Assembly: GCA_022769625.1 (NCBI GenBank) | Contig: JALEJP010000055.1 | Coordinates: forward strand, 4,701 to 68,700 | Reading direction: 5' to 3' | Length of the DNA stretch: 64,000 nt | From: Lachnospiraceae bacterium | GTDB lineage: Bacteria; Bacillota; Clostridia; Lachnospirales; Lachnospiraceae | Shown here: one piece after another, positions 19,140 to 38,721 of the stretch | Position numbering within the stretch: the stretch's first letter is position 1 | Layout of the letters: each line of letters starts with the position of its first letter | Translations under genes and position numbers: made by a program | The notes under the pieces: generated by a model | What the model was told of the DNA's origin: nothing | Database searches by the model: none | Seen by the model: the letters and a program-made list of their open reading frames with translations, nothing else

Positions 19140-20066
19140 TCAAGCAGGAGGCAGGGACTCCAAATCTCTTTTTTTGCGCCCGATACAAACCTTCCCTTCG
19201 GCAATGAAAAACGACAGCATCATCACCGCAGCACCCACCGCAAAACGCGCCCCCGGGCGTTCGCCCAGGACCAGCACGGAAAGCATACAGCCAAACACAC
19301 TCTCAAAGGAGAGAATAATTCCGCTGGTGGAAGTCCGCACGTACTTTTGCCCGTACACACTGAGAAGGTAGGGTACAATCGTGGAACATACCGCAAGATA
19401 GGCGATTCCGCCAAAAGCGGACAAATCCATCCCTTCCGGCATGGGACCAAAGGCCAGGGCAAACACAAGCCCCAGAACGCCGCCTGTACCGATCTGAACC
19501 ATATTTAACAGCATGCCGTCCTGATCTTTTACACAAATTCCGGTGACCACAATGTGGACGGCATAACAGACTGCTGAAAACAGAGAGATCACATCTCCTT
19601 TATTTACACCATCAAAGCTTCCAAACAGGATCAGTGTAAGCCCTGCCATGCATACAAAGGCTGCCTCGATATCCTCCCGGCGCGGCATCTTTTTTTTGAT
19701 CACCCGGTAAACGAGAGGGAGAATCACAATATAGGAAGCCAGAATAAAGGAAGATTTGGATGCGGTGGTATACTGCAGTCCAACCGTAAAGAACCAGAAT
19801 TCAAAATAGAGGATCACCCCCATCCATACCCCGCTTTGTAAGGTTTTCCAGGTCATTTTTTTCATCCGCGGTATGCAGATCAGGATCATCAAAGCCCCCG
19901 CAAAAAGAAACCGGAAGGCCAGAAGCCAGACCGGAGGCAATACATCCAGCGTATCTTTCAGCACACAGTAGGCAGTTCCCCAGGTAAATGCCGCCAAAAA
20001 CAGAGCTGCCACGGCTGTTTTTCTCCGGTATACCGCCCCTTTTTCAAATGCATATTTTTTCTCCAT
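19140..20066 (-). CDS. DMT superfamily transporter (EamA repeats)
   Basis: About 10 TM helices with two EamA-like halves. ATG at 20066 (MEKKYAFEKG) has GAGGAG upstream and overlaps the end of the paralog upstream. Confidence 0.8.
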   Translation of the reverse strand: MEKKYAFEKGAVYRRKTAVAALFLAAFTWGTAYCVLKDTLDVLPPVWLLAFRFLFAGALMILICIPRMKKMTWKTLQSGVWMGVILYFEFWFFTVGLQYTTASKSSFILASYIVILPLVYRVIKKKMPRREDIEAAFVCMAGLTLILFGSFDGVNKGDVISLFSAVCYAVHIVVTGICVKDQDGMLLNMVQIGTGGVLGLVFALAFGPMPEGMDLSAFGGIAYLAVCSTIVPYLLSVYGQKYVRTSTSGIILSFESVFGCMLSVLVLGERPGARFAVGAAVMMLSFFIAEGKVCIGRKKRDLESLPPA

Positions 20067-21150: not shown

Positions 21151-21324
21151 TCAGATAAACTGATTGGTCTTCTCATCATAATGATAATCGATACGGTCCA
21201 TCTGTTCCAACAGCTTTTTCCGGTTCAGCCCGCGGCAGGTACAGAGTGCTTCCAGAGACTCATAATAGTCACGAAGCTGCGTATTGACGTAACTCAACAA
21301 GATCATGGGATCCTTTGGTATCAT
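21151..21324 (-). CDS. DUF4250 domain-containing small protein (57 aa; not in the ORF track)
   Basis: Hand translation gives MIPKDPMILLSYVNTQLRDYYESLEALCTCRGLNRKKLLEQMDRIDYHYDEKTNQFI. RBS GAGAGGGA lies upstream. It resembles the DUF4250 family as I remember it. Confidence 0.7.
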   Translation of the reverse strand: MIPKDPMILLSYVNTQLRDYYESLEALCTCRGLNRKKLLEQMDRIDYHYDEKTNQFI

Positions 21325-23945: not shown

Positions 23946-24044
23946 ATCAACACCTCCCACACACATGTCGTGTCAACCATGGGTATCACAGTATGGATCC
24001 TCAAAAAATCCACACCGCAACAGGGTTTCTCCTGTTCTATCGGA

Positions 24045-24073
24045 ACTATAACACTATTTGTTAGCAATGTCAA
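24045..24073 (-). promoter_or_regulatory. clpB promoter (TTGACA-17-TATAGT)
   Basis: On the minus strand, TTGACA is the complement of 24068-24073 and TATAGT the complement of 24045-24050, with exact 17-nt spacing. It lies about 100 nt upstream of the clpB ATG. Confidence 0.7.
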
Positions 24074-24087
24074 GAGGTGAGTGCTAA
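24061..24087 (-). promoter_or_regulatory. CIRCE-like HrcA operator overlapping the clpB -35
   Basis: TTAGCAatg-N9-GAGTGCTAA compared with consensus TTAGCACTC-N9-GAGTGCTAA: one arm is perfect and the other matches 6/9. Confidence 0.65.
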
Positions 24088-24111
24088 TTTTATGTGATTT
24101 TTTTCTGTCAC

Positions 24112-24987
24112 TCAGTCTTCTGGTATCATACCATATTTTATCTTGATCCGCTCCAGCTTCTCAATCATTGGCCTCCCGGCAAACCACAAAAAAAGAACGG
24201 TAGCCGATGCATGAACCAGATCAACCGGAAGTCCCGACATATAGATAGCCAGAAGATTTTTCCAGTTGATGGCATAGGACATCATAACAAGAGAAGCCGG
24301 ATTCATAATTCCCCCATAGATAAACACAGTCGCCAGAAACCCAAAGACGCACAGAGAAATCCTTCCGGCCTTAAGCCATCCTTTCTGGAACAGAATGCCC
24401 GCCAGAAAACCGATGATTCCCATGGCAAACATCTGCCAGGGTGTCCATGGACCCTGCCCGAAAAGCATATTGGAAGCAAGCATACTGACTGCTCCCACCA
24501 GAAATCCGGATTCTGCGCCAAAGCATACCGCAGCAATGATCACAACGGCTGCTACCGGTTTAAAACTTGGCACCATAAAAAATGCCGCCCTTCCCGCCAC
24601 TGCAATGGCAGCCAGAACCGCGATGACTAAAAGCTCTCTTGCCTGGGGCTTTCGTCCTTCAAAGATCATAAAAAAAGGACAGACCGAATAAAGGGCGATT
24701 GCCATACTGATTACCAGATATTTTCTGTCTTTAAAAAGTGTAATTCCAATCAGGATCGTGACGGGAATCAGAAAAAGTATAAGAAAAACAGCTGCCCGTG
24801 TGCGTGCCGGAAGTCTTCCTTTCCTTTTTGGAACAGCCATCACCTCCGGATACTCCATCCACGATTCTTTCTCCTGAACTGCCGTCTGCGGCTCATCCTT
24901 CCAGAAATCCGGATCCACCGGAAGTCCCTCCCCTTTTCCGTCAAAAAACGCATCCAGAAAAAGCTCCAGATTATCCTTTTGCAGCAT
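24112..24987 (-). CDS. ECF transporter S (substrate-capture) component with a ~65-aa cytoplasmic N-terminal extension; corrinoid specificity inferred
   Basis: Six hydrophobic helices and a GQGPWTPWQMF motif. It is the last gene of the riboswitch-controlled operon and overlaps ecfA by 17 nt. GGGAGG lies 8 nt before the ATG at 24987. Confidence 0.75.
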   Translation of the reverse strand: MLQKDNLELFLDAFFDGKGEGLPVDPDFWKDEPQTAVQEKESWMEYPEVMAVPKRKGRLPARTRAAVFLILFLIPVTILIGITLFKDRKYLVISMAIALYSVCPFFMIFEGRKPQARELLVIAVLAAIAVAGRAAFFMVPSFKPVAAVVIIAAVCFGAESGFLVGAVSMLASNMLFGQGPWTPWQMFAMGIIGFLAGILFQKGWLKAGRISLCVFGFLATVFIYGGIMNPASLVMMSYAINWKNLLAIYMSGLPVDLVHASATVLFLWFAGRPMIEKLERIKIKYGMIPED

Positions 24988-26719
24988 CCCCATCACCTCC
25001 CGGAACTTTGCTGTTCGTTAATTCCTCAATCACATCATCCACAGTCACCGCATTGGGATAATATCTGCGTGCCATCCGATTGGCAGCTGTGGTGTAAAAA
25101 CTGTTCCCGGCAAAGAAATCTCCGGAAGCCTTGCAGGTAACGACATTCCCCTGAAAAAAAAGCCCGGTCCGGTCTGCATACTGAGCGCAGAATTCTACAT
25201 CGTGAGAAATCATCAGGACGGTGATCCCCCTCCTGGTCAGTGTCTTTAATATCTCACCCAGCTCTTTTTTAAAATGGTTGTCCATGCCCTTGGTCGGCTC
25301 ATCCATCAGAAGAATTCTTGGCCGAAGAAGTAATATTTTTGCCAGTGCCAGACGCTGCTGTTCCCCGCCGCTTAAATCATAAGGGTGACGGTCCATCAGA
25401 TCTTCCAGCCTGGTAAGTGCCGCAATTCCTGCCACGGCATCTCTTTTTTTCATGTCAATTTGATAGGCGCGGCTCTTTTTCTCCCTCTTTCCATCGATCA
25501 TTTCATACAGATCATCACGGACTGTTTTTTTCACAAAAAGACTTTGGGGATTCTGTGGGAGAACACCCAGGAATCCATGGTACAGTTCATCGTCGGAATA
25601 TTTGTTGATTTCTCTTCCTTCCAGCCATATCTTTCCCCGGTAAGGATAGCGAATCCGGGCAATCAGACTCATAGTGGTACTTTTTCCGGTCCCATTTCCA
25701 CCTACCAGAGCAAAAATCTCACCTTTTTCCACATCCAGAGACAGACCTTTCACCACATCCGGGGATTCCTTTTCATACCGGAACCAGACATCTCTCATCC
25801 GGATTGCCGGTACTCTTTTTTCTTCCGGCTTTCTTTTTGCCCTTGTTTTCTGGCTTTCTTCTTTTTCTGTCTTTGGAGACAGATTTCTCTGTTTCATCTC
25901 CTCCATAAGCCATCTTCTTCCCCTGCTGACCGTAAGAGGGCATTCCAGACTGCTTCCTGCTCCTGCATAAATCTGCATGGGCGTTGGCATGGAAAGAAAC
26001 ATGTCATGATTCCTGTTTTTGAGTTCCTTTCCGATTTCCTGCGGTGTTCCACGTGCAATGATCTCTCCCTGATCCATCACATATACCCGATCTGCCCATG
26101 GAAGCACATCCTCCAGACGATGTTCCGTCAGAATTACGGTAGTTCCCACATCCCGGTTGATCTTTCGCACGGTTTCCAGAAAATCAGAGGCGGCAATGGG
26201 ATCCAGCTGAGAAGTGGGCTCATCCAGAATCAGAAGATCGGGATGCATCGCCATGACTGATGCCAGATTCAGTAACTGCTTCTGCCCTCCTGATAATTCA
26301 CTGACCTTTTTCATAAACCATTCATGAATTCCAAAATAAGAAGCCATTTCTGCCACTCTCAGACGTATGGTAGGCGTATCATATCCCAGACTTTCCAGTC
26401 CAAATGCCAGCTCGTGCCATACCTTATCTGTCACAATCTGATTGTCCGCATTCTGCAGCACATACCCGATCCCGGCACTCTGTGTCCGTTTGTCAAGCGA
26501 ATCCAGTTCTCTTCCCATATAGCGGATACAGCCCGTTTTATCACCGTTGGGCGCAAGCGAAGATTTCAGCTGTCTAAGCAGTGTACTTTTCCCACATCCG
26601 CTTTTACCGCAAAGAACAACAAAGCTTGCATCCTCCACTTCCAGATCAATGTTTTTCAGTATCCAGTTTTCACTGCCGGGATAGCGAAAACAGAATTTTT
26701 CCATTTCAATACAGTTCAT
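24971..26719 (-). CDS. fused ECF transporter ATPase (EcfA-EcfA', two ABC domains)
   Basis: 582 aa with two Walker A sites (GKSGCGKST, GGNGTGKST) and two signatures (LSGGQKQ, LSGGEQQ). Confidence 0.88.
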   Translation of the reverse strand: MNCIEMEKFCFRYPGSENWILKNIDLEVEDASFVVLCGKSGCGKSTLLRQLKSSLAPNGDKTGCIRYMGRELDSLDKRTQSAGIGYVLQNADNQIVTDKVWHELAFGLESLGYDTPTIRLRVAEMASYFGIHEWFMKKVSELSGGQKQLLNLASVMAMHPDLLILDEPTSQLDPIAASDFLETVRKINRDVGTTVILTEHRLEDVLPWADRVYVMDQGEIIARGTPQEIGKELKNRNHDMFLSMPTPMQIYAGAGSSLECPLTVSRGRRWLMEEMKQRNLSPKTEKEESQKTRAKRKPEEKRVPAIRMRDVWFRYEKESPDVVKGLSLDVEKGEIFALVGGNGTGKSTTMSLIARIRYPYRGKIWLEGREINKYSDDELYHGFLGVLPQNPQSLFVKKTVRDDLYEMIDGKREKKSRAYQIDMKKRDAVAGIAALTRLEDLMDRHPYDLSGGEQQRLALAKILLLRPRILLMDEPTKGMDNHFKKELGEILKTLTRRGITVLMISHDVEFCAQYADRTGLFFQGNVVTCKASGDFFAGNSFYTTAANRMARRYYPNAVTVDDVIEELTNSKVPGGDGDAAKG

Positions 26720-27686
26720 CTGCCTCTCCTTCCTTCTGCCGCACAGGATCCGTCATATACCATGGTATCTTTCTTTCCCGGTTGGCCCTGGCTTTCAGTC
26801 TGTAAAAAACGGCATCCTCCCAGACTCCAAACAAAAAGGGAAAAAAACAGATGACGCCCCATGCAAGGTAAACAAGTATACTGTGCGCAGTCAGCGGAAA
26901 ACCGCCGATGATGATCTTCGGATCATACTGTGCAAAAACATCTCCGGAAAAGAATCCTCCAAAACAAACTTCGGTAAGCGCCAGAAGAAGGGCGGAAAGG
27001 ATTCCGTCTCTTCGGTCAAAATGAAAAACGGAAAAAGCAGTCCTTCCTTTCAGACCGTATCCTCTGGCTGTCATGGAATCTGAGGTATCTATGGCATTTT
27101 CCAGTGCCCAGGTAACAAGTATGGAAAATAGTGTAATTCCATATTTTATTTTACGCAGAAAATGTGCATTACTCATATCCCGTCCCACCGCCTTCTGCCC
27201 ATTTCGTATCACCTTCAGCTGCTCTCCAAAGCGCGGCACAAAGCGAAATACCATGGAGAGCACCAGCGAAAGTGATGGGATGATCCGTCCAAACAGATAG
27301 ACAAATTTGTCCGTGGTCATCACCTCGTTGTAGCAGGAAAACCACAGAACTGCAATAAAAAGCATGGAAGACAGAACCACGCCATAGACAATTGCTTCCA
27401 GTGTAACCGGTCCTGTTTTGAGATAGAACAGCGTAGTCACTCCATAATGATTGAAGGCAGGATTAATCAGCGCAACCAGGATCATGGCCGGGAGCGTAAC
27501 CAGGATATTAAATTTTATCACCTTTCTCCAGCCTTTCAGCCGTATGGCATAGGCTGCTGCTCCCAGAAACGAAATGGCAAGCAGCACCGGATGACTGACG
27601 AACATCGTAAACAGCAGGACAATAAGAAAATACATCAGGTTCACCACAGGATGACATCCGGCAAAAGCATCCGTCTGTTTATTCAT
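26706..27686 (-). CDS. ecfT: energy-coupling factor transporter transmembrane protein EcfT
   Basis: CbiQ/EcfT-like polytopic protein with an ARG-type coupling motif (MTARGYGLKGR). ATG at 27686 overlaps the stop of the upstream gene. Confidence 0.82.
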   Translation of the reverse strand: MNKQTDAFAGCHPVVNLMYFLIVLLFTMFVSHPVLLAISFLGAAAYAIRLKGWRKVIKFNILVTLPAMILVALINPAFNHYGVTTLFYLKTGPVTLEAIVYGVVLSSMLFIAVLWFSCYNEVMTTDKFVYLFGRIIPSLSLVLSMVFRFVPRFGEQLKVIRNGQKAVGRDMSNAHFLRKIKYGITLFSILVTWALENAIDTSDSMTARGYGLKGRTAFSVFHFDRRDGILSALLLALTEVCFGGFFSGDVFAQYDPKIIIGGFPLTAHSILVYLAWGVICFFPFLFGVWEDAVFYRLKARANRERKIPWYMTDPVRQKEGEADELY

Positions 27687-28791
27687 AATACTGATCTCCC
27701 ACATCACGTCCCAGATCACAGGTATAGCGCCACTCGATCACATCGCCGTCACTTACTTCATATTTGGAACATCCATAATTCGGAAACCATCCATTCACCG
27801 AATACATCCAGCCGGAAAGCGAACCACAGTCAAACTCATACAGCTGATTGATTCCTTCCACATAATAAGAGCTGTATGCCGGTGTATAGCTTGCCTCCAT
27901 GTGAATATCCGCCTCACGGCATGCCCGGTAGAGTACATCATAGACCGTTTCTCCCGGTGTATAAGAAATTTCTGAGGCATACAGGATCCAGCCATCTGAT
28001 GGTACAAATTCTTCCTTGGATTTTTTGAGATCCTCCATATTATCCAGAATAGTGGAACATTCGATGGAGATGGTACAGGTATGTGTATCTGCGTTTTCCT
28101 GAGAAGAATCCTCTTCCTGTAACGCTGCCTCTTCTGTCCCGGCATCTGTACTTTCCCTGGCCCCGGTGTTTCCCCCCACCAGATAATAGGTATCTCCCAT
28201 CTCGGTAACCTGGAACGTCAGTTTTGTGGTATCTGTCTCAGTTTTTTCCATGGAAACATCACACATCTTTTCCGGTACGCCATCAACCAGTTTGCATAAA
28301 ATGACCAGATCTGCGTCCCACTTCTGCGGAAGCTCCAGTGTCAGCTTTGCGGGTGCAGCCAGATTTTCCTTTGCCAGAGTGACTCCAAGCCCAACCGAAG
28401 CACCATTTGCCGCCTGCTTCACATTCTCCACGTTATCGTCGGTAAAAATAACCTTCAGATTCTGTTCCACCGGATTCTGTATTTTTCTGCCCTCGTAACT
28501 CCAGTAATAGGCAATGTTCCTTGCTTCATCCTGTGAATAAAACTGATACGTCGCATCGGTTCCGGCAATTGCATTCATCTGCTCCCGGGTCACAATACCG
28601 CTTTCCGGCAGCTCCATTCTACCATCTGTAAACAGTTCATCCACGGAGAGCGTTTCCCCGGCCTCTGTTTTTTCTTCTGTCTGCCCGGACTTCTCCAGCT
28701 GTGTGATCTCACTGCTGTTTGTGGTACAGCCTGCAGTAAGCAGCAGGATGGTAAGCACCATCATCCCTATTCGGCTATAATTTCTTTTCAT
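27679..28791 (-). CDS. lipoprotein with a C-terminal DUF4430 (transcobalamin-like beta) domain
   Basis: Lipobox MKRNYSRIGMMVLTILLLTAG|C. The C-terminus GETVYDVLYRA...YVEGINQLYEF..SGWMYSVNGW...DGDVIEWRYT is canonical DUF4430. RBS AGGAGGAG lies before the ATG at 28791. Confidence 0.85.
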   Translation of the reverse strand: MKRNYSRIGMMVLTILLLTAGCTTNSSEITQLEKSGQTEEKTEAGETLSVDELFTDGRMELPESGIVTREQMNAIAGTDATYQFYSQDEARNIAYYWSYEGRKIQNPVEQNLKVIFTDDNVENVKQAANGASVGLGVTLAKENLAAPAKLTLELPQKWDADLVILCKLVDGVPEKMCDVSMEKTETDTTKLTFQVTEMGDTYYLVGGNTGARESTDAGTEEAALQEEDSSQENADTHTCTISIECSTILDNMEDLKKSKEEFVPSDGWILYASEISYTPGETVYDVLYRACREADIHMEASYTPAYSSYYVEGINQLYEFDCGSLSGWMYSVNGWFPNYGCSKYEVSDGDVIEWRYTCDLGRDVGDQYYE

Positions 28792-31700
28792 TTCGTCTCC
28801 TCCTGCCAACAGCAAAAACGATACAGGCTCCCAGTGCAGCTCCCAGAATAAATACAAGCAGGACAGTAATATTTTCACGCTTCCAGATACCGTTCAGACC
28901 GGTGCCGACTGCATGCATACCGGTACGCTCTGAATCATTCTCAGATTCAGGAGACTCCTTTTGTGTATCGTCGGAAGCATTGTCCGGCGTATAAGTCTTT
29001 CCCTCAAAGCTCCATCCTTTTGCTTCTTTTTTGCTGCTTTCTGTTTTTGCACTGCTTGTTTTCTGTGTCCCGTTCTCCGTTTTGCTCAGTGTTTTTCCTA
29101 CGGAACTGCCTTTTGGCTGTGTGTTTCCACCTGTCTGTGACTCTTTCGGATCTGATATTCCGGTTCCGCTCCCGTCTCCCTTTTCTCCTTTTTGAGCTGT
29201 CAGGTCAGACATGTCATAAAGCGAGGTCTTGCCATCACAAAACCGTTGATAAGCAACCAGCGCATAATAGCCCTGTTCCGTTGCCATCCCATTTACCACG
29301 CCGCCTTCACCGCCTCCATTTGTCGCCGCTCCGGCTTTGACATGCATAAACCCGCTGCCGTCGATATGATAAGAAATCAGGTTTTCCACGGTCCATCTTC
29401 CATTTTTAATGAAACGTGCGTCCTTCCGGGGATCAATTCCAAGTGCACAGAGTGCGGTAATGACCTGTGCATTGGATTCCAGCGTTTCCGCTCCCATCGT
29501 GCCGAAACCGCCTGTCTTCAGCTGCATCTTTGACAGGCGGTTTACGCCACGGTCAATTGCCGCCGTTACCTTCCCGTAACTCTCCTTATTGTAATAAGGT
29601 GCCAGCGCCTGCAGTGTCATGGCTGTAATATCGGTATCCGGTTCGTCTCCCTGCAAAGACCATCCCCCTCCGGCAATCTCTCCTTCCAGCAGATAATCAA
29701 TCAGTTTTTGTTCAGTTGTCTGTTCAGAAACACCGGAAACCTTTGGAATCGTATAGTCCGGATTGCAGTTCAGCGCAATCAGAGCCCAGATGGGACCATT
29801 AAATCCCTGTTCCGTGATTTTTGCAAAATCTGCAAGATTTTCCAGCAGATTGTAACCTGCTATGTTTCTTGCATCCTTCCCGATGGCTGTCATAACCAGG
29901 ATCTGTTTGGAATACTCGGTATATTTCACACTGTTGGTCAGTTTGCCATCCTTTTCCTCCAGGTAATTTGCAAGATGATTGTAATAGGTCTGAAAATATT
30001 TGGATTTCAGGGATTTCCCCCCTCTTGCAAGACCAAGCACAAACCATTCACTTCCTACGGTGGGGTCTTTGTCAATGGAAAGCATATATTCTGATGTCTC
30101 TTTCCTGACCTGGTCAACCGATTTTTTCAGTTTATTGGCTTTGTCTGTCACCGTCACTTTGCAGAATGCTGTTATGGATGCGTCTGACTTCAGTGAAACG
30201 GTAACCTTTACACTTCCCGGTGAAATGCCTTTCAGCATCCCGTCACCCGTGACCTTCACGATGGACGGATCGGAACTTTTTATGACTACTGTTCTGTCTG
30301 TCGTCGCATTGAATGGTGTATAATCCACCTCCAGGGAAATCGTGTTTCCAATCCCTACATATTCTTCCGGGGGGACTGAAATTTTTGTAACACGGATCGG
30401 ATTGCTGACGATCAGCAGCGCTCCGGTGTGACTGGTCTTGAACGTAATGCCGTTATCGGTAATCTGGCTTTCCAGCTCCTTTAAAACCACAGAGCTTCCC
30501 TCTGCTGTCAGGGTATTGACGCAGGGATTGTTCAGATTCTGTGCCTCCGAGAGATCTGCTTTTAATTCCAGATCCCTGTCTGGCGTATAAGTGGTTCCAC
30601 TTCGGATATCCTGATAGGAAATGATCTTATTGAAAGCAATGGATGCAAAGGAAGAATACTTTTCTGTCACTGCTTTCTTCCAGGAACTGTTTTCCGTTCC
30701 ATTTTTTACAGTCAGGCACACATACCACGCGGCAGTAACACTTAAGCCACCTGAGGTGTGGATCTGATCTCCGATCCACTGACGGATGGATTTGATGGAG
30801 TCGGTTGTTTTTTCTGACAGCCGGTTCAGCTGTTCTGCTTCCATAGCATCACAGGCATTGGAAATCACGATGAAGCTTTGGATCTGTTTGGAATTTAAGT
30901 CAAACGGCTTTGTCTGATCCACCGAAGCCACAGTCTCGTTGACACAGGAAACCGTCCAGTCTGCAATCTCTTCCATACGTTCTGCTGCTTCCTCGTTCAG
31001 ATAAGCCTTCTGATCTGCAGCGAGACTGGAATACCTTTTCCAGAGATCCACTGCATCCGCCACATTGCCAACCGTCACACGGTCTGCAAAATCCGTTATC
31101 TTTTTCTGCACTGTATCTGCTTCTGTTTTCAACTGCCGGATTTTCTCTTCCAGGTTTACCAGCTTCCGGATCAGATCGGCATCCAGCTTACTTTGCTGTT
31201 CTGTGTCCAGATCTTCGTAAGCACTGCGCACTTCCCGAACCGCGGTTTCATCCGAAAGCGAAACGCGTTCCGGTGACGGCAGATCTGTCAGCCTGTCCCG
31301 AACCCTCTCCACCTGCTTCTGCTTTTCAATCACCACATCTGCTTCCTGTTTCAGCCTGCGAAGCTCTTCCACAGACCCCGCTGACATCTCCTTTTGTACT
31401 TCATCGGAAAGTGACAGGTATTCATCCCACACCTTTTGAATCTGCTGCGCTGTTTCTTCTGTCACAGCACCTGCAGAAGAAAGCGCAGTGATTTTTGTCT
31501 CCATGGACTTTGCCAGCTCCTTCGGTGTGCCCACCATAATTTTACATTCCGCTGACACTCCACTTTGAGTCCGAACCGTAATGACCGCTTCCCCGTTTTT
31601 CAAAGCAGTGACTTTCCCCGAGGCATTCACAGAGGCAACCGAAGCATCGCTGCTTGCGTATGTAACACTCAGTTTTTCCGTGGCATTTTCGGGCTCATAT

Positions 31701-32833
31701 TTTTCCACATGGATTGAAACACTGTCTCCCATTTTCAACCAGGCAGTCGTCTGGTTCAGAATGATTTTCGTGATCTTCCGATCCTTTACCGTCACATGAC
31801 AGACCGCCGTTTTCTGATTCTGCGTTTTCACGGTGATATCAGCCGTTCCAACTCCCAAAGCCGTCACCAGTCCATCCGAATCCACCGATACAACCCCACC
31901 ATCGGAGCTGACCCATTCCAGAGAATACTGGTTCACATTTTCCGGACTCAGGACCGCATGAAGCTTCAGGGTATCACCTGGACTTAAATCTGCCTGCGTT
32001 TTCTGTAAAGTGATCTGATTGGGAAAAACCGGTTCTTCCTCCGGCAGCTGTGCCAGGGCATAATCCAGCTCACTTTGTGATGCATCCAGCTTCTGCAGTA
32101 CCGTTATGGCGTTGTAATAAGCTGCCTCACATCCCGGCACACAAAACCAGACTGATTTCTTCTGATTGATCTGTGCGATTTTCCTGGTAAGTGCCGTCTT
32201 ATCTCCCACCGGATAATACACCTTTGTTTTGTCACTGTAGCTGCATCCGGTAAGGTCTTCTCCGTATCCCCACACTGTAAACTGCAGTCGGAACACATCA
32301 CCGTCTTTCGGACTTTTCCCGTCCATGCCTACACCTGGATACTCATTACCTTTATCATTTCCCACAGAATACATCCATCCGGACATTCTCGAATAAGAAA
32401 ATTCTCCAAGCCATGCCAGATTTCCCGCATACTCATTTTTCGCACTGTTATCCGGAGGTTCCACGTTTTTAATACCTATTTTTTTCGCTCCGATCGTTTT
32501 GATGCAGGAAGGAATCGAAATCGTCCCTGCGTCTGCGCCATTGATTCCGGAAAGATAAAAACTGGCTCCTTTTGTGTCGTAGCTGTATCCATTTTCCTGC
32601 AAAACCCTCCTGCAGATCGTCTCATACGTATCCCCGCTCTGAAAGGTTGTCACATAGGGTTGGATCAGATAGCCCTGGCCGATGGAAAAACGTTCCACTG
32701 CCACGGTAACAGTTCCAGCAGAGACAGTTTCTGCCTCTGCTGAAATCATACAGCCCGGAAATGTTGAAAAAACAAGTACTGCTGACAATAGAAATGATAT
32801 CAAACAGTTCACTCTCTTTTTTCTTCTATCCAT
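28775..32833 (-). CDS. 1352-aa cell-surface protein: signal peptide, DUF4430, Big_2 modules, helical repeats, alpha/alpha-toroid (prenyltransferase/transcobalamin-alpha-like) domain, S/T-rich linker, C-terminal TM anchor
   Basis: N-terminal block FSIGQGYLIQPY...SGWMYSVGND...DGDVFRLQFTVWG. Big_2 blocks (LKLHAVLSPENVN..). Toroid motifs NGPIWALIALNCNPDY, TDITAMTLQALAPYYN and GGFGTMGAETLESNAQVITALCALG. Tail VLLVFILGAALGACIVFAVGRRRRNEKKL with no LPXTG. Confidence 0.8.
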   Translation of the reverse strand: MDRRKKRVNCLISFLLSAVLVFSTFPGCMISAEAETVSAGTVTVAVERFSIGQGYLIQPYVTTFQSGDTYETICRRVLQENGYSYDTKGASFYLSGINGADAGTISIPSCIKTIGAKKIGIKNVEPPDNSAKNEYAGNLAWLGEFSYSRMSGWMYSVGNDKGNEYPGVGMDGKSPKDGDVFRLQFTVWGYGEDLTGCSYSDKTKVYYPVGDKTALTRKIAQINQKKSVWFCVPGCEAAYYNAITVLQKLDASQSELDYALAQLPEEEPVFPNQITLQKTQADLSPGDTLKLHAVLSPENVNQYSLEWVSSDGGVVSVDSDGLVTALGVGTADITVKTQNQKTAVCHVTVKDRKITKIILNQTTAWLKMGDSVSIHVEKYEPENATEKLSVTYASSDASVASVNASGKVTALKNGEAVITVRTQSGVSAECKIMVGTPKELAKSMETKITALSSAGAVTEETAQQIQKVWDEYLSLSDEVQKEMSAGSVEELRRLKQEADVVIEKQKQVERVRDRLTDLPSPERVSLSDETAVREVRSAYEDLDTEQQSKLDADLIRKLVNLEEKIRQLKTEADTVQKKITDFADRVTVGNVADAVDLWKRYSSLAADQKAYLNEEAAERMEEIADWTVSCVNETVASVDQTKPFDLNSKQIQSFIVISNACDAMEAEQLNRLSEKTTDSIKSIRQWIGDQIHTSGGLSVTAAWYVCLTVKNGTENSSWKKAVTEKYSSFASIAFNKIISYQDIRSGTTYTPDRDLELKADLSEAQNLNNPCVNTLTAEGSSVVLKELESQITDNGITFKTSHTGALLIVSNPIRVTKISVPPEEYVGIGNTISLEVDYTPFNATTDRTVVIKSSDPSIVKVTGDGMLKGISPGSVKVTVSLKSDASITAFCKVTVTDKANKLKKSVDQVRKETSEYMLSIDKDPTVGSEWFVLGLARGGKSLKSKYFQTYYNHLANYLEEKDGKLTNSVKYTEYSKQILVMTAIGKDARNIAGYNLLENLADFAKITEQGFNGPIWALIALNCNPDYTIPKVSGVSEQTTEQKLIDYLLEGEIAGGGWSLQGDEPDTDITAMTLQALAPYYNKESYGKVTAAIDRGVNRLSKMQLKTGGFGTMGAETLESNAQVITALCALGIDPRKDARFIKNGRWTVENLISYHIDGSGFMHVKAGAATNGGGEGGVVNGMATEQGYYALVAYQRFCDGKTSLYDMSDLTAQKGEKGDGSGTGISDPKESQTGGNTQPKGSSVGKTLSKTENGTQKTSSAKTESSKKEAKGWSFEGKTYTPDNASDDTQKESPESENDSERTGMHAVGTGLNGIWKRENITVLLVFILGAALGACIVFAVGRRRRNEKKL

Positions 32834-32857
32834 AACTCCATACCAGACTCTGAATGT

Positions 32858-35800
32858 TTACTTTTTGATCTTCACAGCTTTTGCGGAAGAATAAGCGCTG
32901 TATACCTTCTTGCCGTTTACCTTCCGGTAAGCTCTTACTTTATAATAACAGGTACTGCCTTTTTTCCGTTTGCTGTCTGTATATTTAACCGTTTTTCCGG
33001 AACGGATGGTTTTGATTGCTTTATAAGTTCCGTTCTTTTTGGATGCACGGTAAACAATGTAACCGCTTGCACCTGCAACCTTCTTCCAGGTGATAAGTGC
33101 TTTCTTTCCTTTTTTATTTTTTACGGAAATAACAGCTTTTGCGGGTACGGTTTTTGCTGTCACACTATTGGAAAGCTGACTGTATACTGTTTCACCCCAT
33201 GCTGTACTCACCGCCTGTACCGCATAGTAATACCGGGTTCCGGTTACTGCATTCCTGTCACGGAAATTCAGCTCTTTTGTCTCGCCAAGTTTCTGCCAGT
33301 TTCCACCTGATACTTTACGGTAAATCGAATAGGAAGCTGCACCGATACAGGATTTCCAGGAAAGCTCCACACAATTATAGGAAACTGCTTTGGCAGCTGC
33401 CGAAGGTACCAGTTCCCGGAATTCTGTTTTTAACTTTTCCAGCGCCGCTTTCTCTGCTGCTTCTTTTTCCGCTTCCTGATTATCATCCGCGGATCCACCC
33501 ACATCGGTCAGGTCATACAGGGCGTTCTCTTTTTCAACAAAACGGCGGTATGCTTCAAACGCATAGGTCGTCTGCTGTGTTCCCATTGCATTTCCTTTGG
33601 TTTCCACAGATGGATCCCAGTAGAAACCTTCCTCTGCCTTGTAGCTCCACAGATTTGTAATCATATTTTTCTGACCGATGGTAAATCCATTTTTACCATC
33701 AGCCGCATCCATACCTGCCACAGACAGAGCAGTCAGAATCTGTGCCGTGGTACAGCTGTTCTCATTGTAGGATTTATTCGCCGCAAAGCCGGCCTCTAAA
33801 GACATCTGTTCCTGAAGCCATGTCAGTGCTTTCTCAAAGGCTTCCTGAACTTCCGGATGCTTCTCGTTATTATAAGGAGCCAGTGCCTGCAGGATCATAC
33901 CGGTCATATCAACATCGGTTGCATCGGTTAAGGTAAATCCTCCGCTGGCATCCTGGAAAAGAAGGAGCATCTCAATCAGGCTGTCCCGATTCCATTTTGC
34001 TTTTGCCGGAGTTTTGTAATTTTTGCTGTCAAGTGCAATCAAAGTCCAGGATATCTGATTGGAGGTCAGCTCATCCAGATCCTTCCAGTTGTACAGCTTT
34101 TCAATCAGGTTCATTCCACGGAAATTTTCCGGGTTTTCCCCCATGACTCCCAGTGTCAGTACAACACGGACATAGTCTGTAGGCTGGTTCAGTCCATTCT
34201 TCAATGAAGTTTCCACACTGTCCAGATACGCAGACTGATCTGCTTCCTGAATCGTTCCACCGGCCCTGAGGATCGTAAAGATATTCCACTCATCCCCGTA
34301 TTTCGTCACACTCTGTCGTTCCAGGTAATCCAGTCCGTGCGTAATACCAGCTTTTACCGTAGGCATCGGATCATAGGTTTCTGCTGTTTCGCTTTTTACC
34401 GTAACAGTGAATGTGATCGGTTTGCATCCGCCTGATGTATCGTATGGCGTGCCGGTCACGGTAACAGTTCCTGCTTTTTTGGCAACAATAGTCTTACCAT
34501 TCATGCTCACGATTCCATTTTCACTGTAACTCCAGTCAAAATCAGAATTTGTTGCATTGGAAGGTGTTGTCTCCAGACTCAGAGCAAGGGTATCGCCCAC
34601 ATTCATCTCATAAGAAGTCTGCTTCAGGGACGCATCCGTTAACGGAACCTGATATACAAAGGTAACCATTACTTCCTGGGTAAGGGAAGGGTTGTCCTGA
34701 CTGGTAACCTTAAATTTTGCCACCCCGGCTCTTTTTGGAACAATACCGGAATTATGCTGTGATGTATAGAAAGCCACATCCGGTGTCAGTGCTTCCCAAA
34801 TCAGTTCCTTATTGGTCGCATTGGAAGGTGTATAATCAATCTTCAGATTATCGCTGTAAAGCTGCAGACCGTAATAGTAGCCGGTCATAAAATCCGTCTC
34901 ACCGGTGATCGTAAAGGTTTCCGGCGTTGTGATTTGAAACCCACTTAAAGGCTGGTAATTACATTTTGCAAGGAATTGCTGTTTAACGCTCCAGTTATCC
35001 TTCATGAAAACAGACATGGCAGCCTGTCCCCCGGTTTTGATGGACAGGTTATTTCCAACCCACCTGAAATTATAGGTGGTATCATTCGTATCATAATGAA
35101 GGGCCTGCGCCGGTATAACCTGCCACTCATCTTCTGCTGTTTTCCGGCCATAGGTTGTCACTTCCACGCCGCTTGTTGTTCCTTCTGTTACATATGGCTG
35201 ATCCAGGGATACTTCCTGATCACCCACGCAGGTTTTCAGTTCGGTGATACCGCTGGAAACACATGTCACCTGAAAAGATTTGCTCCATCCTCCAGAATCA
35301 GCAATAATATTCAAAGTTCTTGTATCCCAGGGATTCCATTTACCGGTTTCCCGATTTATGAAGCTCCAGTACTGCAGATCATCTCCTCCTGCAATGGAAG
35401 ATACGAAATCACTGCCGCCACTCCATGTAGTGGTACCTTCCGATCTTCCAACCACAAATTTACCTTCATCCAGACAGGTCAGTGTAATCGTATTATCTTC
35501 ACCGAGAATCTGCGGATCCCTTCCGTCTTCATATTCAAAATATACATAGGGTCCCTGATAAGCAGTGACTTCTACCTCAAAAGTGGATGTCCTGGATCCG
35601 ACTTTTACGATGACGCTGGTCTTTCCTTCCTTTTTTCCTTTTACGGAAGCAAGATATTCATTTCCTTCCATCGGTATAACCTCTGCCACCGTTTCATCTT
35701 CCACGCTCCACTCCCAGTCCAGATTTTCAATACCGGATGGAACCACTTCAGCCATCAGATTGAGTTCCCCGGAAATGGCTTCCACCTGATTGGTGGAACC

Positions 35801-36730
35801 CATATTAGTGATGTAGAGACTGTCAGCATCACGAACGGTCACCTCAACACTGTCTTTTACTTCCGGATTCTCTGCTGTCACGGTAATGGTTGCTGTTCCG
35901 GCACCAATTCCTTTGATCACGCCATCCTTAACCGTTGCGACCGTTTCATCTGTTGATTCCCAGGTCAGAACATCTGTGCTTCCAAGAGGATCCAGTGTCG
36001 GTATCACGGTCACTTTCTGACCGCCGTAAATCTCCATTTTTTCTTCCGGCAACGTGATGTCCACTGCTCCGTCCGTGGCCGTCTCCATCTTTTCTTTTGC
36101 AGCGGCTACTGTCTCAGGAGTAGCATCCGTCGTATTCAGGAGCATCGCAACCGCCTCATCATAGGCAGCTCTGCGATTGCCGCCAAGTGCATTGGCATCA
36201 TATTGGGAGAGAGTCTGGATCAGCGCATCCTTGCTGACCTTTATATTTCCAACGGCTCCCCATCCTCCACCTTCTGAGGTTATTCCCGCTTTTTCCAGAT
36301 CACTTCCCGGGATATAAATAATACGCAAAACCGTTACCCGGCTTGCCCAGAAAGACGCAGAGTCGGTATAGCACTCACCGTCTGCCGATATCACCCATTT
36401 CGATCCTTCTCCGAGATCACCGTTATCGAGCCATCCGTCTTCCCGGCTGTCATCTTTAAATCCAGTAATCTCATCGTTGCTCATTTTAACCTGATCACTT
36501 CCCAGAAGTGACGTGATAAAAGGCGTACCATAACTGCCGCTCCAGCTCTCTGTCATCGTTGGCGGAACCAGAATCGTCCCATTTCCTTCTGCATCATATT
36601 TTTCAACGGTATAATACCTTGGTGCTGCTGCCTGCACCTGCACATCCATCACCGTAAATCCGGAGATGATCATGCACAGAGTAAGAACAATGCTCACTGC
36701 TCTTTTTAAAAACTTATTTCTCCTGTTCAT
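32858..36730 (-). CDS. 1290-aa secreted surface protein: Big_2 modules, beta-rich region, alpha/alpha-toroid domain, two very basic Fn3 modules
   Basis: Signal peptide MNRRNKFLKRAVSIVLTLCMIISGF... Several Big_2 blocks. Toroid motifs QISWTLIALDSKNYK, VDMTGMILQALAPYNN and EAGFAANKSYNENSCTTAQILTALSVAG. C-terminal Fn3-like repeats (SYSIYRKVSGG.., GYIVYRASKKNG..). ATG at 36730 lies 7 nt after GAGGAGG. Confidence 0.8.
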   Translation of the reverse strand: MNRRNKFLKRAVSIVLTLCMIISGFTVMDVQVQAAAPRYYTVEKYDAEGNGTILVPPTMTESWSGSYGTPFITSLLGSDQVKMSNDEITGFKDDSREDGWLDNGDLGEGSKWVISADGECYTDSASFWASRVTVLRIIYIPGSDLEKAGITSEGGGWGAVGNIKVSKDALIQTLSQYDANALGGNRRAAYDEAVAMLLNTTDATPETVAAAKEKMETATDGAVDITLPEEKMEIYGGQKVTVIPTLDPLGSTDVLTWESTDETVATVKDGVIKGIGAGTATITVTAENPEVKDSVEVTVRDADSLYITNMGSTNQVEAISGELNLMAEVVPSGIENLDWEWSVEDETVAEVIPMEGNEYLASVKGKKEGKTSVIVKVGSRTSTFEVEVTAYQGPYVYFEYEDGRDPQILGEDNTITLTCLDEGKFVVGRSEGTTTWSGGSDFVSSIAGGDDLQYWSFINRETGKWNPWDTRTLNIIADSGGWSKSFQVTCVSSGITELKTCVGDQEVSLDQPYVTEGTTSGVEVTTYGRKTAEDEWQVIPAQALHYDTNDTTYNFRWVGNNLSIKTGGQAAMSVFMKDNWSVKQQFLAKCNYQPLSGFQITTPETFTITGETDFMTGYYYGLQLYSDNLKIDYTPSNATNKELIWEALTPDVAFYTSQHNSGIVPKRAGVAKFKVTSQDNPSLTQEVMVTFVYQVPLTDASLKQTSYEMNVGDTLALSLETTPSNATNSDFDWSYSENGIVSMNGKTIVAKKAGTVTVTGTPYDTSGGCKPITFTVTVKSETAETYDPMPTVKAGITHGLDYLERQSVTKYGDEWNIFTILRAGGTIQEADQSAYLDSVETSLKNGLNQPTDYVRVVLTLGVMGENPENFRGMNLIEKLYNWKDLDELTSNQISWTLIALDSKNYKTPAKAKWNRDSLIEMLLLFQDASGGFTLTDATDVDMTGMILQALAPYNNEKHPEVQEAFEKALTWLQEQMSLEAGFAANKSYNENSCTTAQILTALSVAGMDAADGKNGFTIGQKNMITNLWSYKAEEGFYWDPSVETKGNAMGTQQTTYAFEAYRRFVEKENALYDLTDVGGSADDNQEAEKEAAEKAALEKLKTEFRELVPSAAAKAVSYNCVELSWKSCIGAASYSIYRKVSGGNWQKLGETKELNFRDRNAVTGTRYYYAVQAVSTAWGETVYSQLSNSVTAKTVPAKAVISVKNKKGKKALITWKKVAGASGYIVYRASKKNGTYKAIKTIRSGKTVKYTDSKRKKGSTCYYKVRAYRKVNGKKVYSAYSSAKAVKIKK

Positions 36731-36832
36731 CTTAATCCTCCTCACGAAATCCTAAAACATTCAAAGTCCGCTCATTTTTCTGATATCATAAAACGATGAT
36801 ATGTTTGTTGCGATCGCCTCCTTTTCCTCCAG

Positions 36833-37693
36833 TTATGATTTATCTGCAAATTCCATATCGAAACCAAACTCCCGGCAGTATGCTTCCACCCTTCCACCTC
36901 TTCTGCATCTGATTTTTGTGGATCGGTTGATGATCCATTCCCCGATTTCATCCGGTTCATGCAGAATTTCAAGCACCTGCAGTCGATTGCATCCGTGAAA
37001 TACCCACTTCCCGATTCGTTTTACACTTTCCGGGATTTTTACCGATTTCAGCATCGTGCATTTGAAAAATGCTGCTTCCTCCAGTTCCACAAGGCGTTCA
37101 GGTAAATGAAGTTCTTCCAGGGCCGTGTAGTAAAAGGCTTCCTGGCCAATCTTTTTCACCGATTTCGGTATATGAATTTGAGTCAGTGATTTACATCGAT
37201 AAAACGCTCTGCGTTCAATCCTTTCCAGATTGGTTGGAAGTACAATTTCCCTAAGCTGTGTGCAGCAGTCAAAAACACAGGATCCAAGTTCCGGCAGCAA
37301 CGCATCCGGATCCACAAAAACCGTCTGAAGCTTTCTGCACTCTTTAAACGCAGCGCTCTCCAGAAGTCTGATCTCTCTTGGGATACGGACGCTCTGCAGC
37401 GCACAGCTGCGTGCAAATGCCGCTTCTCTTATGGCTGTCACAGACTCCGGCAGCAAAAGTTCTCCTTCTATGCCGCAATTTTTAAAAGCTTCACGGCCGA
37501 TGATCCGGCAGGTTTTCGAAAATCTTACCTGTCTGAGTTTTGTCATATTTTCAAACGCTTTATCACCAATAAAAAAATACGGATCCGGTATGACAAACTC
37601 CTCCTGATTACGGCTCCCTACCTGCTTTTTTGTGATGGTTCTTACGGAAAGTTGTAAATCATGCCATTTCTTTTCATCCAGTTTGTATCGCAT
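36833..37693 (-). CDS. BspA-type leucine-rich repeat (LRR_5) protein without a signal peptide; first gene after the riboswitches
   Basis: Repeats of the type IG..AF..C..L..V.IP.SV..I. The N-terminus MRYKLDEKKWHDLQLSVRT is hydrophilic. RBS AAAGGAG lies 6 nt before the ATG at 37693; the track start 37744 lies inside the riboswitch terminator. Confidence 0.75.
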   Translation of the reverse strand: MRYKLDEKKWHDLQLSVRTITKKQVGSRNQEEFVIPDPYFFIGDKAFENMTKLRQVRFSKTCRIIGREAFKNCGIEGELLLPESVTAIREAAFARSCALQSVRIPREIRLLESAAFKECRKLQTVFVDPDALLPELGSCVFDCCTQLREIVLPTNLERIERRAFYRCKSLTQIHIPKSVKKIGQEAFYYTALEELHLPERLVELEEAAFFKCTMLKSVKIPESVKRIGKWVFHGCNRLQVLEILHEPDEIGEWIINRSTKIRCRRGGRVEAYCREFGFDMEFADKS

Positions 37694-37733
37694 CCTCTGC
37701 TCCTTTCCGTTTCCCCTGCCTTTTTCAGGCAAC

Positions 37734-37940
37734 AAAAAAAGCACATTTCCCTCACCCGGGAAACATTACTTCCACACCCGATATGGCAGGTCTCCTGACT
37801 TAGCTTCTTCCTCCGAAGCGCCTTCTCGAATCTTTCTTTCAATGGCATTTGCTTCTTCGTCGGCAATACAGTAGTGGTGACTGTCCCGGATTCCAACCGG
37901 GTTCCCTTTTTGCTCCACACAGATTGTGCTTCACCATATC
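37734..37940 (-). promoter_or_regulatory. cobalamin riboswitch, gene-proximal copy, with terminator
   Basis: Minus strand reads GGTGAAGCAC...AAAAGGGAACCCGGTTGGAATCCGGGACAGTCACCACTACTGTA. The B12 box AGTCAGGAGACCTGCC is the complement of 37785-37800. It is followed by GUUUCCC gggtga GGGAAAU + U7 (37734-37764). Confidence 0.88.
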
Positions 37941-37986
37941 GTGATTTTCTATTGTTAATTTACCCTGACTTTTATTTTTGGGTAAC

Positions 37987-38192
37987 AAAAAAGTACATTT
38001 TCCTCACCCGGAAAACATGACCTTGAATCAATCATGGCAGGTCTCCTGACTCAGCTTCTTCCTCCAAAGCGCCTTCCCGGCAATATCTGCCAGTGGCCTT
38101 CTGCTTTTTCGTCTGCATTACAGTAGTGGTGACTGTTCCGGTTTCTGACCGGATTCCCTTTTTACTCCACACAGTATGTGCTTCACCATGAC
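37987..38192 (-). promoter_or_regulatory. cobalamin riboswitch, promoter-proximal copy, with terminator
   Basis: Minus strand reads GGTGAAGCAC...AAAAGGGAATCCGGTCAGAAACCGGAACAGTCACCACTACTGTA. The B12 box AGTCAGGAGACCTGCC is the complement of 38036-38051. It is followed by CAUGUUUUCC gggtga GGAAAAUG + U6 (37987-38019). Confidence 0.88.
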
Positions 38193-38212
38193 GATTAATT
38201 TATATTTTTTTC

Positions 38213-38241
38213 ATTGTATTTCTTTTTGCCTTCCTTGTCAA
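38213..38241 (-). promoter_or_regulatory. promoter of the riboswitch-controlled operon (TTGACA-17-TACAAT)
   Basis: On the minus strand, TTGACA is the complement of 38236-38241 and TACAAT the complement of 38213-38218, spaced 17 nt. It lies about 20 nt upstream of the first aptamer. Confidence 0.75.
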
Positions 38242-38357: not shown

Positions 38358-38675
38358 ATGAAAACATCCGTATCAAAAATCATAAGGAACATGTTCCTGC
38401 TCCTTACAATGGCGTTCCTGATACCGTCCATTGCCAAGGCAGCACTCATCACAAGCAGCGGTGGAAATGGAAAAGAAGCGACTCCGCATCAGCTGACCAT
38501 AGGTCACTGTGAAGATGACACGTTCACCTACACCGTCAGTTCTGGATGTATAAGTGCTTCCAGTTTGAGCAGTAATTCCTTCCTCGTAAAGCAAGGTGAG
38601 ACAGTTACTCTCATCATTCGAAGTGGTTCAAATCCCGGTAAAGCTGTGAAGAAAGTAGTGAAACTTAAAAATTAA
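38358..38675 (+). CDS. small secreted protein (105 aa), no recognisable family
   Basis: Strong RBS AAAAGGAGGAGAAGGAG, signal peptide ...FLIPSIAKA|A, and a strong terminator after the stop. Confidence 0.6.
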   Translation: MKTSVSKIIRNMFLLLTMAFLIPSIAKAALITSSGGNGKEATPHQLTIGHCEDDTFTYTVSSGCISASSLSSNSFLVKQGETVTLIIRSGSNPGKAVKKVVKLKN

Positions 38676-38686
38676 GAAAATCGAGC

Positions 38687-38721
38687 AAATGGGGTGTCAC
38701 ACAAATGTGACACCCCATTTT
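38687..38721. terminator. bidirectional intrinsic terminator between convergent genes
   Basis: AAAT GGGGTGTCACA caaa TGTGACACCCC ATTTTT, a perfect 11-bp stem (38691-38716) with A/T tracts on both sides. Confidence 0.9.

Follow-up and report, generated by a model that had tools for sequence, protein, structure and literature searches.

Competition for cobamides shapes gut communities, and the machinery that captures them is understood only for Bacteroides. For low-GC Gram-positive bacteria, the relevant passages of Burroughs, Balaji, Iyer and Aravind (2007, PMC1796856) describe secreted or anchored proteins in which a transcobalamin-like SLBB domain is fused to α/α toroids and Ig-like domains, and whose operons also contain a further SLBB paralogue together with CbiO/CbiQ genes; a role in B12 scavenging was predicted, and it was proposed that animals gained transcobalamin from such bacteria. 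The import step has a solved counterpart in the energy-coupling factor (ECF) transporter ECF-CbrT of Lactobacillus delbrueckii (PDB 6FNP), which imports cobalamin and cobinamide (Santos et al. 2018, eLife 7:e35828, PMC5997447) and whose CbrT had, as a passage of that paper relates, been predicted as B12-specific by Rodionov et al. in 2009. Here we describe a locus of this kind in 64,000 nucleotides of DNA from a Lachnospiraceae bacterium (contig JALEJP010000055.1, positions 4,701 to 68,700), hereafter the window. Between positions 24112 and 38241 of the window, seven minus-strand genes lie behind two cobalamin riboswitches, and we consider it likely that they specify a dedicated cobamide importer of the ECF-CbrT type, co-transcribed with three extracellular transcobalamin-like corrinoid binders and repressed by intracellular cobalamin via the two riboswitches in series. 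The basis of the whole reading is computational, and corrinoid binding, relay and repression are predictions from sequences and structural models.

The locus fits every feature listed in the 2007 passages, namely surface proteins in which Ig-like spacers accompany SLBB domains and toroids, an additional SLBB paralogue, and genes for the ECF ATPase and T components. It differs in having two ~1300-aa paralogues, each with SLBB domain and toroid ~700 aa apart and one of them anchored by a transmembrane (TM) helix and not by LPXTG, and in its tandem complete riboswitches; those passages hold neither an S component nor a riboswitch. Compared with ECF-CbrT, the S component is homologous, the importer is likewise ATP-driven and of the ECF type, and the genomic context is B12-related, but the L. 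delbrueckii CbrT is a 182-aa group II protein served by a general ECF module, whereas here the module is dedicated, its ATPase is a fused A-A', the S component has 294 aa with two extra N-terminal TM helices, and surface binders are co-encoded. The locus is not new in concept, being composed of known parts (the SLBB/toroid scavenging operon, CbrT import and tandem adenosylcobalamin (AdoCbl) riboswitches), and its local variations are the two giant paralogues, the TM anchor, the duplicated riboswitch and the long-form CbrT. A preliminary description of this DNA, made from the sequence alone, had put its novelty too high, since the system was predicted in 2007 and ECF-CbrT import was shown in 2018.

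The animal carriers transcobalamin, intrinsic factor and haptocorrin (PF01122 plus PF14478) share with the modelled proteins the same two folds, an α/α toroid and an SLBB β-domain. They are ~400-aa soluble chains in which contiguous α and β domains clamp one cobalamin, whereas here the domains are placed on giant stalked proteins or on separate polypeptides and the toroid is nearer in sequence to terpene cyclases than to PF01122. The Bacteroides proteins BtuG, BtuH and BtuJ with BtuB are comparable as riboswitch-linked surface lipoproteins which catch cobamides and pass them to a transporter, forming a multi-protein extracellular relay in a gut commensal (PMC8941943; PMC13616437), but the present system has no outer membrane and no TonB-dependent BtuB, and its importer is of the ECF type and not BtuCD. 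No Bacteroides B12-binding protein was among the Pfam or Foldseek PDB results for the proteins of the locus; the earlier view that it is built from unrelated parts holds for BtuG/H, while the kinship to animal transcobalamin had been only half-stated. The operon Lsa1836-1840 of L. sakei, compared by description only, has the same gene content, with S, A-A' and T components and transcobalamin-like β and α subunits. The passages of that study which treat the operon assign it to heme uptake by mutant phenotype, contain no cobalamin riboswitch and report the authors' statement that its S component lacks cobalamin-binding residues (bioRxiv 10.1101/864751).

A review of September 2026 calls the surface cobamide binders of Gram-positive Firmicutes 'entirely uncharacterized' (PMC13616437). 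The locus is a clean, strongly regulated candidate for the Gram-positive side of gut B12 competition, and its value lies in tractability and not in discovery, as constructs from it could test if bacterial toroid and SLBB domains bind cobamides, which ones they favour and if they supply an ECF importer. The proposal that animal transcobalamin came from bacteria is touched by it as well.

Operon organization and riboswitch leader

The seven open reading frames (ORFs), checked on both strands with starts refined from the positions of ribosome-binding sites (RBS) and ATG codons, are tightly packed 3' of the riboswitches in the order LRR_5 protein, giant surface protein 1, giant surface protein 2, DUF4430 lipoprotein, EcfT, fused EcfA-A' ATPase and S component (Table 1). 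The first two junctions are gaps of 102 nt (LRR_5 to giant 1) and 24 nt (giant 1 to giant 2), and the later ones are overlaps of, in order, 17, 8, 14 and up to 26 nt. Within the operon, both the terminator-like sites (22 against 16.9±4.6) and the promoter-like sites (31 against 26.2±4.4) are weak, and their frequency is that of the background in shuffled sequences. The preliminary description had named the same seven genes in the same order, with no terminator between them and with the same promoter and two aptamers in front; besides the counts just given, Pfam and NCBIfam searches agree with it (LRR_5, Big_2, DUF4430, CbiQ, two ABC_tran and ECF S matches), the promoter matches 11 of 12 consensus positions and both aptamers are full-length RF00174 matches.

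Besides the promoter, only one site of this kind occurs in the scanned 20 kb; the promoter has 9 nt between the end of its -10 box and the first aptamer. Across the entire window, exactly two matches exceeded the Rfam gathering score (31.5 bits for RF00174), and these are the two full-length minus-strand cobalamin aptamers, both of which contain the B12-box sequence AGUCAGGAGACCUGCC. At the sequence level, each aptamer is followed by an expression platform consisting of a hairpin and a U-run, which the preliminary description had missed. In unit 2 the terminator scan lists a terminator-like site at 37766-37743. In unit 1 the minimum free energy fold prefers another pairing and the site lies under the GC-pair cut-off of the scan, and the call rests on the sequence and its alignment to unit 2. 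Between the two aptamer-plus-terminator units, 188 of 236 aligned columns (80%) are identical; the units lie 65 nt apart, and the promoter scan found no promoter-like site between them. Because each aptamer has its own terminator and the units are so similar, the leader is, judging from its sequence, a pair of complete riboswitches in tandem duplication and not two aptamers on one shared platform; their identity likewise marks the pair as a recent duplication.

Tandem AdoCbl riboswitches with separate expression platforms were reportedly described by Sudarsan et al. in 2006. They form a described class (Sherlock et al. 2022, PMC9481103), which the present leader resembles in having two units of the same class, each with its own terminator, and from which it shows no essential difference. 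Among the related loci surveyed below, which are labelled L plus a number, the nhmmer profile scan found a close tandem arrangement in few, L045 and weakly L002; the L002 aptamer fell below the Rfam gathering scan, and a permissive scan gave it 49.8 bits with a degenerate second copy at 30 bits. Multiple cobalamin riboswitches were observed in several spacings elsewhere: a close tandem pair in L045 (7602-8257), three about 1 kb apart in L061 (1332-3583) and four over 12 kb in L035 (8399-20422).

The ECF importer

The preliminary description had counted kinship of the S component to those of an unrelated substrate against its reading. The only significant PDB relative found is 6FNP_A (CbrT), whose alignment spans residues 7-177 of its 182; the next S component stands at E 2.7. 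The protein departs from the six-TM, ~180-aa CbrT form through an N-terminal extension, consisting of a ~60-aa cytoplasmic tail and two extra TM helices, that is kept in 57 related loci, and on the evidence of its sequence it is a distinct, long CbrT subfamily. The S, T and A/A' components (the latter with two PF00005 domains) are encoded together with overlapping gene junctions, an arrangement by which the importer is classed as a dedicated (group I) ECF transporter. Cobalt transport of the CbiMNQO type was also considered and was rejected, the S component being CbrT-like and no CbiM- or CbiN-type match being present among the search results.

Transcobalamin-like surface proteins

The operon encodes in total three SLBB-type domains and two toroids, the two part types that clamp B12 in transcobalamin. 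The lipoprotein has the SLBB domain only and no toroid. Its model (predicted local distance difference test, pLDDT, 81.8) shows a β-rich N-domain followed by the C-terminal SLBB domain, for which the first 16 Foldseek matches in the PDB were all transcobalamin, haptocorrin or intrinsic factor, and the next was a structural-genomics protein of Ruminococcus gnavus (3u7z). Superposition on the isolated β-domain of transcobalamin (5no0) gave a TMt of 0.70 and a root-mean-square deviation of 3.3 Å. As modelled, the DUF4430 domain is structurally a transcobalamin β-domain, and it belongs to a lipoprotein family with more than 5000 homologues at E≤1e-8. The relation surfaced only via predicted structure and Foldseek; single-sequence PDB searches with the lipoprotein and with giant 2 retrieved no cobalamin carrier. 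Within the lipoprotein SLBB domain, the cysteines C218, C224, C320 and C337 are invariant and C301 is near-invariant among 41 homologues (mature numbering). Such conserved cysteines are unusual for an extracellular domain of an anaerobe, and they could form disulfides or, by analogy with the cysteine ligand of BtuM, serve as ligands of the corrin cobalt.

Giant 2 begins with a signal peptide and an SLBB/DUF4430-like N-domain, continues through two Big_2 domains, a helical stalk of ~250 aa and a further Big_2 domain to the α/α toroid, and ends in a low-complexity linker and the C-terminal TM anchor. Its N-domain matches PF14478 below threshold (E 8.7e-4), and several orthologues carry PF14478. 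The toroid, the only one of the two toroids modelled, was predicted from a 21-sequence alignment, and the top Foldseek match of the model in the PDB is human transcobalamin (4zrp_A, E 1.2e-4, TMq 0.60). In the toroid family, a nearly invariant motif DxD(I/M)T(G/A)M aligns in profile-to-PDB comparison with the catalytic DxDDTA of squalene-hopene cyclase, and a second near-invariant motif is NGMATEQ; their residues may form part of the lining of the ligand cavity, or they may survive as a trace of a terpene-cyclase ancestor.

Giant 1 consists, in order, of a signal peptide, a divergent SLBB-like N-domain, three Big_2 domains, a β-rich region, an α/α toroid and a C-terminal region. The N-domain has no Pfam match and its likeness to SLBB is remote. 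The toroid gives a weak Prenyltrans match, and SQHop_cyclase_C is matched by all members of the toroid alignment. Only a sub-threshold FN3-like match (GH85_C) was obtained for the C-terminus, where the hydropathy and motif scan found no anchor motif, and an LPXTG-type sorting signal was found in neither giant. Orthologues of giant 1 carry interchangeable SLH, choline-binding, dockerin or FIVAR modules, and in keeping with these giant 1 is probably attached to the cell wall via its C-terminal region. One homologue (P0161) has a dockerin domain (PF00404), which hints that in some species a B12-binding protein may ride a cohesin/cellulosome-like scaffold. In the Blautia-type relative L002, a sortase gene (18916-19692) lies directly 3' of the S-component gene and overlaps it; the window has no sortase at this place.

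Table 1. Features of the cobalamin-riboswitch operon, in coordinates of the window.
Feature	Position	Strand	Evidence
Sigma-70-type promoter TTGACA-17-TACAAT	38213..38241	minus	11/12 consensus positions matched
Cobalamin riboswitch aptamer 1	38019..38204	minus	RF00174, 109.8 bits, E 1.3e-26, model positions 1-189
Riboswitch unit 1 intrinsic terminator	37987..38018	minus	stem ATGTTTTCC/GGAAAATGT, loop GGGTGA, then T6
Cobalamin riboswitch aptamer 2	37768..37953	minus	RF00174, 91.3 bits, E 2.5e-21, model positions 1-189
Riboswitch unit 2 intrinsic terminator	37734..37766	minus	9-bp stem, then T7; fold -13.8 kcal/mol
LRR_5 (BspA-type) protein, 286 aa	36833..37693	minus	LRR_5 E 1.7e-51; RBS GGAAAGGAG then ATG
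Giant surface protein 1, 1290 aa	32858..36730	minus	Big_2 x3, weak Prenyltrans (Pfam)
Giant 1 N-terminal divergent SLBB-like domain	36308..36574	minus	hhalign against SLBB profile, probability 89.5%, E 2e-6
Giant 1 α/α toroid	33521..34420	minus	27-28% identity to giant 2 toroid, E about 1e-25
Giant surface protein 2, 1352 aa	28775..32833	minus	Big_2 x3, weak SQHop_cyclase_C (Pfam)
Giant 2 N-terminal SLBB/DUF4430-like domain	32234..32728	minus	motif SGWMYSVG; BLAST to lipoprotein SLBB E 3.7e-5
Giant 2 α/α toroid	29189..30178	minus	AlphaFold2 model, pLDDT 93.2
Giant 2 predicted C-terminal membrane anchor, aa 1320-1345, then RRRRNEKKL	28799..28876	minus	hydropathy scan
DUF4430 lipoprotein, 370 aa	27679..28791	minus	PF14478 E 1.8e-19; lipobox LTAG|C
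Lipoprotein SLBB domain, transcobalamin β-domain fold	27703..28086	minus	Foldseek against PDB
EcfT (CbiQ family) transmembrane coupling component	26706..27686	minus	PF02361 E 1.6e-9; multiple TM segments; TARGYG motif
Fused EcfA-A' ATPase, 582 aa	24971..26719	minus	ABC_tran E 3.5e-58, two stretches; TIGR04520 336 bits, above cut-off
CbrT-like S component, 294 aa	24112..24996	minus	PF07155, PF12822; 6FNP_A E 8.5e-10

Conservation of the cassette among Bacillota

The toroid profile, searched against one genome per species, found more than 567 stretches, from which 77 loci were fetched at the species level; these came from Lachnospiraceae, Blautia wexlerae, Paenibacillus, Enterococcus, Clostridium, Terrisporobacter, Tissierella, Lutispora, Oscillospiraceae, Bacillus and Ellagibacter. 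Among the 77 loci, genes on the toroid strand encoded an SLBB domain in 70, EcfT in 56, the ATPase in 58 and a CbrT-like S component in 51. The cassette of riboswitch, toroid/SLBB proteins, SLBB lipoprotein and T, A and S components occurs in at least 50 of the 77 loci, across Bacillota, and the cassette is present in hundreds of Bacillota species. Its order is well kept: 49 of 50 loci have T before A and A before S, in 48 of 62 cases no more than 700 nt lie between T and the end of an SLBB domain upstream of it, and the toroid genes stand directly upstream of SLBB-T-A-S in most loci. The survey for a riboswitch next to these genes, suggested in the preliminary description, placed a cobalamin riboswitch on the same strand in 47 of the 77 loci (nhmmer profile; 61 '+' against 2 '-' matches), and the covariance model R1 (seven aptamers), run over 1.25 Mb, gave 49 cobalamin riboswitches, of which 47 lie on the gene strand.

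Close relatives in Blautia and in metagenome-assembled genomes of Lachnospiraceae have full-length homologues of both giants, and the two-giant layout is kept in the closest loci, L002 and L007. The clusters that include ClpB and EcfA at ≥90% identity are named Hominisplanchenecus sp., a human-gut lineage of Lachnospiraceae. Relatives of the cassette also lie beside genes of B12-dependent metabolism. In L003, an unrelated metagenomic Bacillota contig, a pdu microcompartment locus surrounds the riboswitch-led cassette, which adjoins diol dehydratase; in L005 the cassette lies near the gene of a B12-dependent aminomutase (Lys-AminoMut_A/OAM_dimer/B12-binding domains). Paenibacillus radicis has a riboswitch before a solitary 1930-aa protein with toroid, DUF4430 and SLH domains, with no transporter nearby. 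The pdu context of L003 (8942-24959) comprises PduV-EutP, bacterial microcompartment shell proteins, PocR and diol dehydratase, with riboswitches at 9727-9905 and 21152-21322; an extra DUF4430 gene of 130 aa follows 3' of its S gene, and a second cobalamin riboswitch lies downstream, past a glycerate kinase gene.

Proposed mechanism

Transcription would begin ~7 nt past the -10 box at 38213. With AdoCbl or another cobamide in good supply, each of the aptamers would independently favour its own terminator, and read-through would have to escape both; serial terminators, known as a 'pseudo-cooperative' tandem arrangement, would make repression tighter and steeper. Under cobamide shortage, the mRNA would be produced at its full length of ~14 kb. 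At the surface, giant 2 would be held by its C-terminal TM helix and giant 1 in the wall layer via its C-terminal region, each showing one SLBB (β-grasp) domain and one α/α toroid on long Ig-like/helical stalks, and a corrinoid could be clamped between the toroid face and the SLBB domain, as in transcobalamin. Such clamping would have to occur in trans or by fold-back, because the two domains of one chain are ~700 residues apart. The membrane-tethered SLBB lipoprotein, the best conserved of the accessories, whose gene directly precedes that of EcfT, would hand the ligand to the S component, and EcfT with EcfA-A' would topple the S component and hydrolyse ATP, resulting in the import of cobamide or cobinamide.

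A more specific and rather doubtful version, which we offer tentatively, is that the three surface proteins act as a tiered 'split transcobalamin' relay, in which a toroid and the SLBB domain of another protein (or the distant one of the same chain) clamp the corrinoid, and the ligand is handed inward, starting at the tips of the ~1300-aa stalks, first to the lipoprotein and next to the long-form CbrT. The toroids, only 27% identical to each other, may be specialised for different cobamides, or may serve in stripping B12 from host intrinsic factor or haptocorrin. If true, the relay would give extracellular cobamide capture by Gram-positive gut bacteria its first mechanistic model and would be a living example of the lineage proposed as the source of animal transcobalamin.

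Alternative explanations

Several observations weigh against a B12 acquisition operon with corrinoid-binding giants. In the Foldseek search with the giant 2 toroid, drimenyl diphosphate synthase, other terpene cyclases and prenyltransferases nearly equal transcobalamin, and the profile of 21 toroids, compared with the PDB, matches squalene-hopene cyclase (E 4e-10) and not transcobalamin. The Pfam check proposed in the preliminary description likewise gave the expected weak Prenyltrans and SQHop_cyclase_C matches, but Cobalamin_bind PF01122 was matched by no member of the toroid alignment. The fold as modelled is compatible with transcobalamin, and membership in PF01122 is left open because of this profile match and the lack of any Cobalamin_bind match. 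With SLBB domain and toroid so far apart in each giant, a transcobalamin-style sandwich is not guaranteed. About 40% of the related loci have no riboswitch within the fetched DNA, and as seven riboswitch-negative loci rescanned with Rfam stayed negative, the riboswitch is frequent but not universal within ±10 kb. The terminator scan gave no obvious terminator 3' of the S gene, and co-transcription of the operon is what we infer from its layout. Literature searches found no experiment on corrinoid binding by a bacterial toroid or DUF4430 protein, and for experimental work on bacterial DUF4430/transcobalamin-like proteins they gave only the L. sakei heme study. That study also speaks against corrinoid as the ligand, as the passages concerned report that the deletion mutant of Lsa1836-1840 was impaired in heme uptake and was restored by complementation (bioRxiv 10.1101/864751). 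Corrins and porphyrins are similar in size and the specificity of toroid and SLBB domains is predicted only, so that the present locus might import heme or another tetrapyrrole. Against this stand the two cobalamin riboswitches that gate the operon and those that precede the cassette on the same strand in its relatives, the embedding of the cassette in the pdu and aminomutase loci of B12 enzymes, and the cobalamin/cobinamide subunit CbrT as the nearest solved relative of the S component, and we regard heme import as the least probable of the explanations weighed here.

The B12 system might also be confined to the lipoprotein and the ECF genes, the giants and the LRR protein being co-transcribed adhesins or host- or glycan-binding proteins that, for example, alter the surface under B12 starvation. 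Adhesins typically carry modules such as Big_2, LRR_5 and the FN3-like one matched here below threshold, giant 1 orthologues exchange their SLH, choline-binding, dockerin and FIVAR modules, the toroid is nearest in sequence to terpene cyclases and prenyltransferases, and the LRR gene is variably placed in relatives. The pairing of toroid and SLBB domain that defines transcobalamin is nevertheless present in both giants, toroid genes directly precede SLBB-T-A-S in most loci, and the solitary toroid+DUF4430+SLH protein has a cobalamin riboswitch of its own with no transporter nearby, which together make the adhesin explanation unlikely. We find it quite improbable that the surface proteins mainly hoard corrinoids, as a competitive sink or a surface store, without feeding the importer. 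The several binding modules, the ~8 kb investment beyond the apparent need of a simple relay, and the competition of Bacteroides surface binders for B12 (PMC8941943, PMC13616437) would suit such hoarding, but the genes are tightly coupled to those of the importer by the operon and its overlapping junctions, and repression by B12 suits acquisition in scarcity and not storage in plenty. Corrinoid capture and import, as interpreted in the preliminary description, is thus the reading supported in silico.

LRR_5 protein and neighbouring genes

In the hydropathy scan, the LRR_5 protein showed no signal peptide, TM helix or other hydrophobic segment. Its gene lies 3' of the riboswitch both here and in L007; in L002 it precedes the riboswitch, and in L010 it comes behind the S gene. 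It appears to be a loosely linked neighbour whose functional tie to the B12 system is uncertain, and the view of it as an integral part was rejected as unproven given this variable position. LRR_5 modules recur nearby, in this first operon gene, in a 647-aa protein encoded upstream and in a 1719-aa GH89 protein.

The clpB gene (21354-23966, minus) has a strong promoter of its own (24073-24045, TTGACA-17-TATAGT, extended TG), and the promoter region (24045-24100, minus) overlaps a CIRCE-like half-palindrome, TTAGCACTC-N9-CATTGCTAA. Read-through from the B12 operon into clpB is possible, because no terminator separates the S gene from clpB. On the other side, a 105-aa ORF (38358-38675, plus) with a signal-peptide-like N-terminus, a strong RBS and no Pfam match diverges from the operon promoter region, and just upstream of the operon lies the gene of the 647-aa LRR_5 plus Peptidase_M26_N-like protein (38751-40694, minus), behind which stands a strong bidirectional terminator (38687-38720) whose stem has 15 bp.

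Further away, the 1719-aa protein (7590-12749, minus) is a secreted GH89 α-N-acetylglucosaminidase with NAGLU N, TIM and C domains, two F5/8 type C domains, two Big_2 domains and LRR_5; it suggests breakdown of host mucin or glycosaminoglycan, which agrees with a gut habitat. An 881-aa ORF (45590-48235, minus) joins an amino-acid permease (residues 12-437) to an iron-containing alcohol dehydrogenase (513-881) and is either an unusual fusion or two genes without a stop codon between them.

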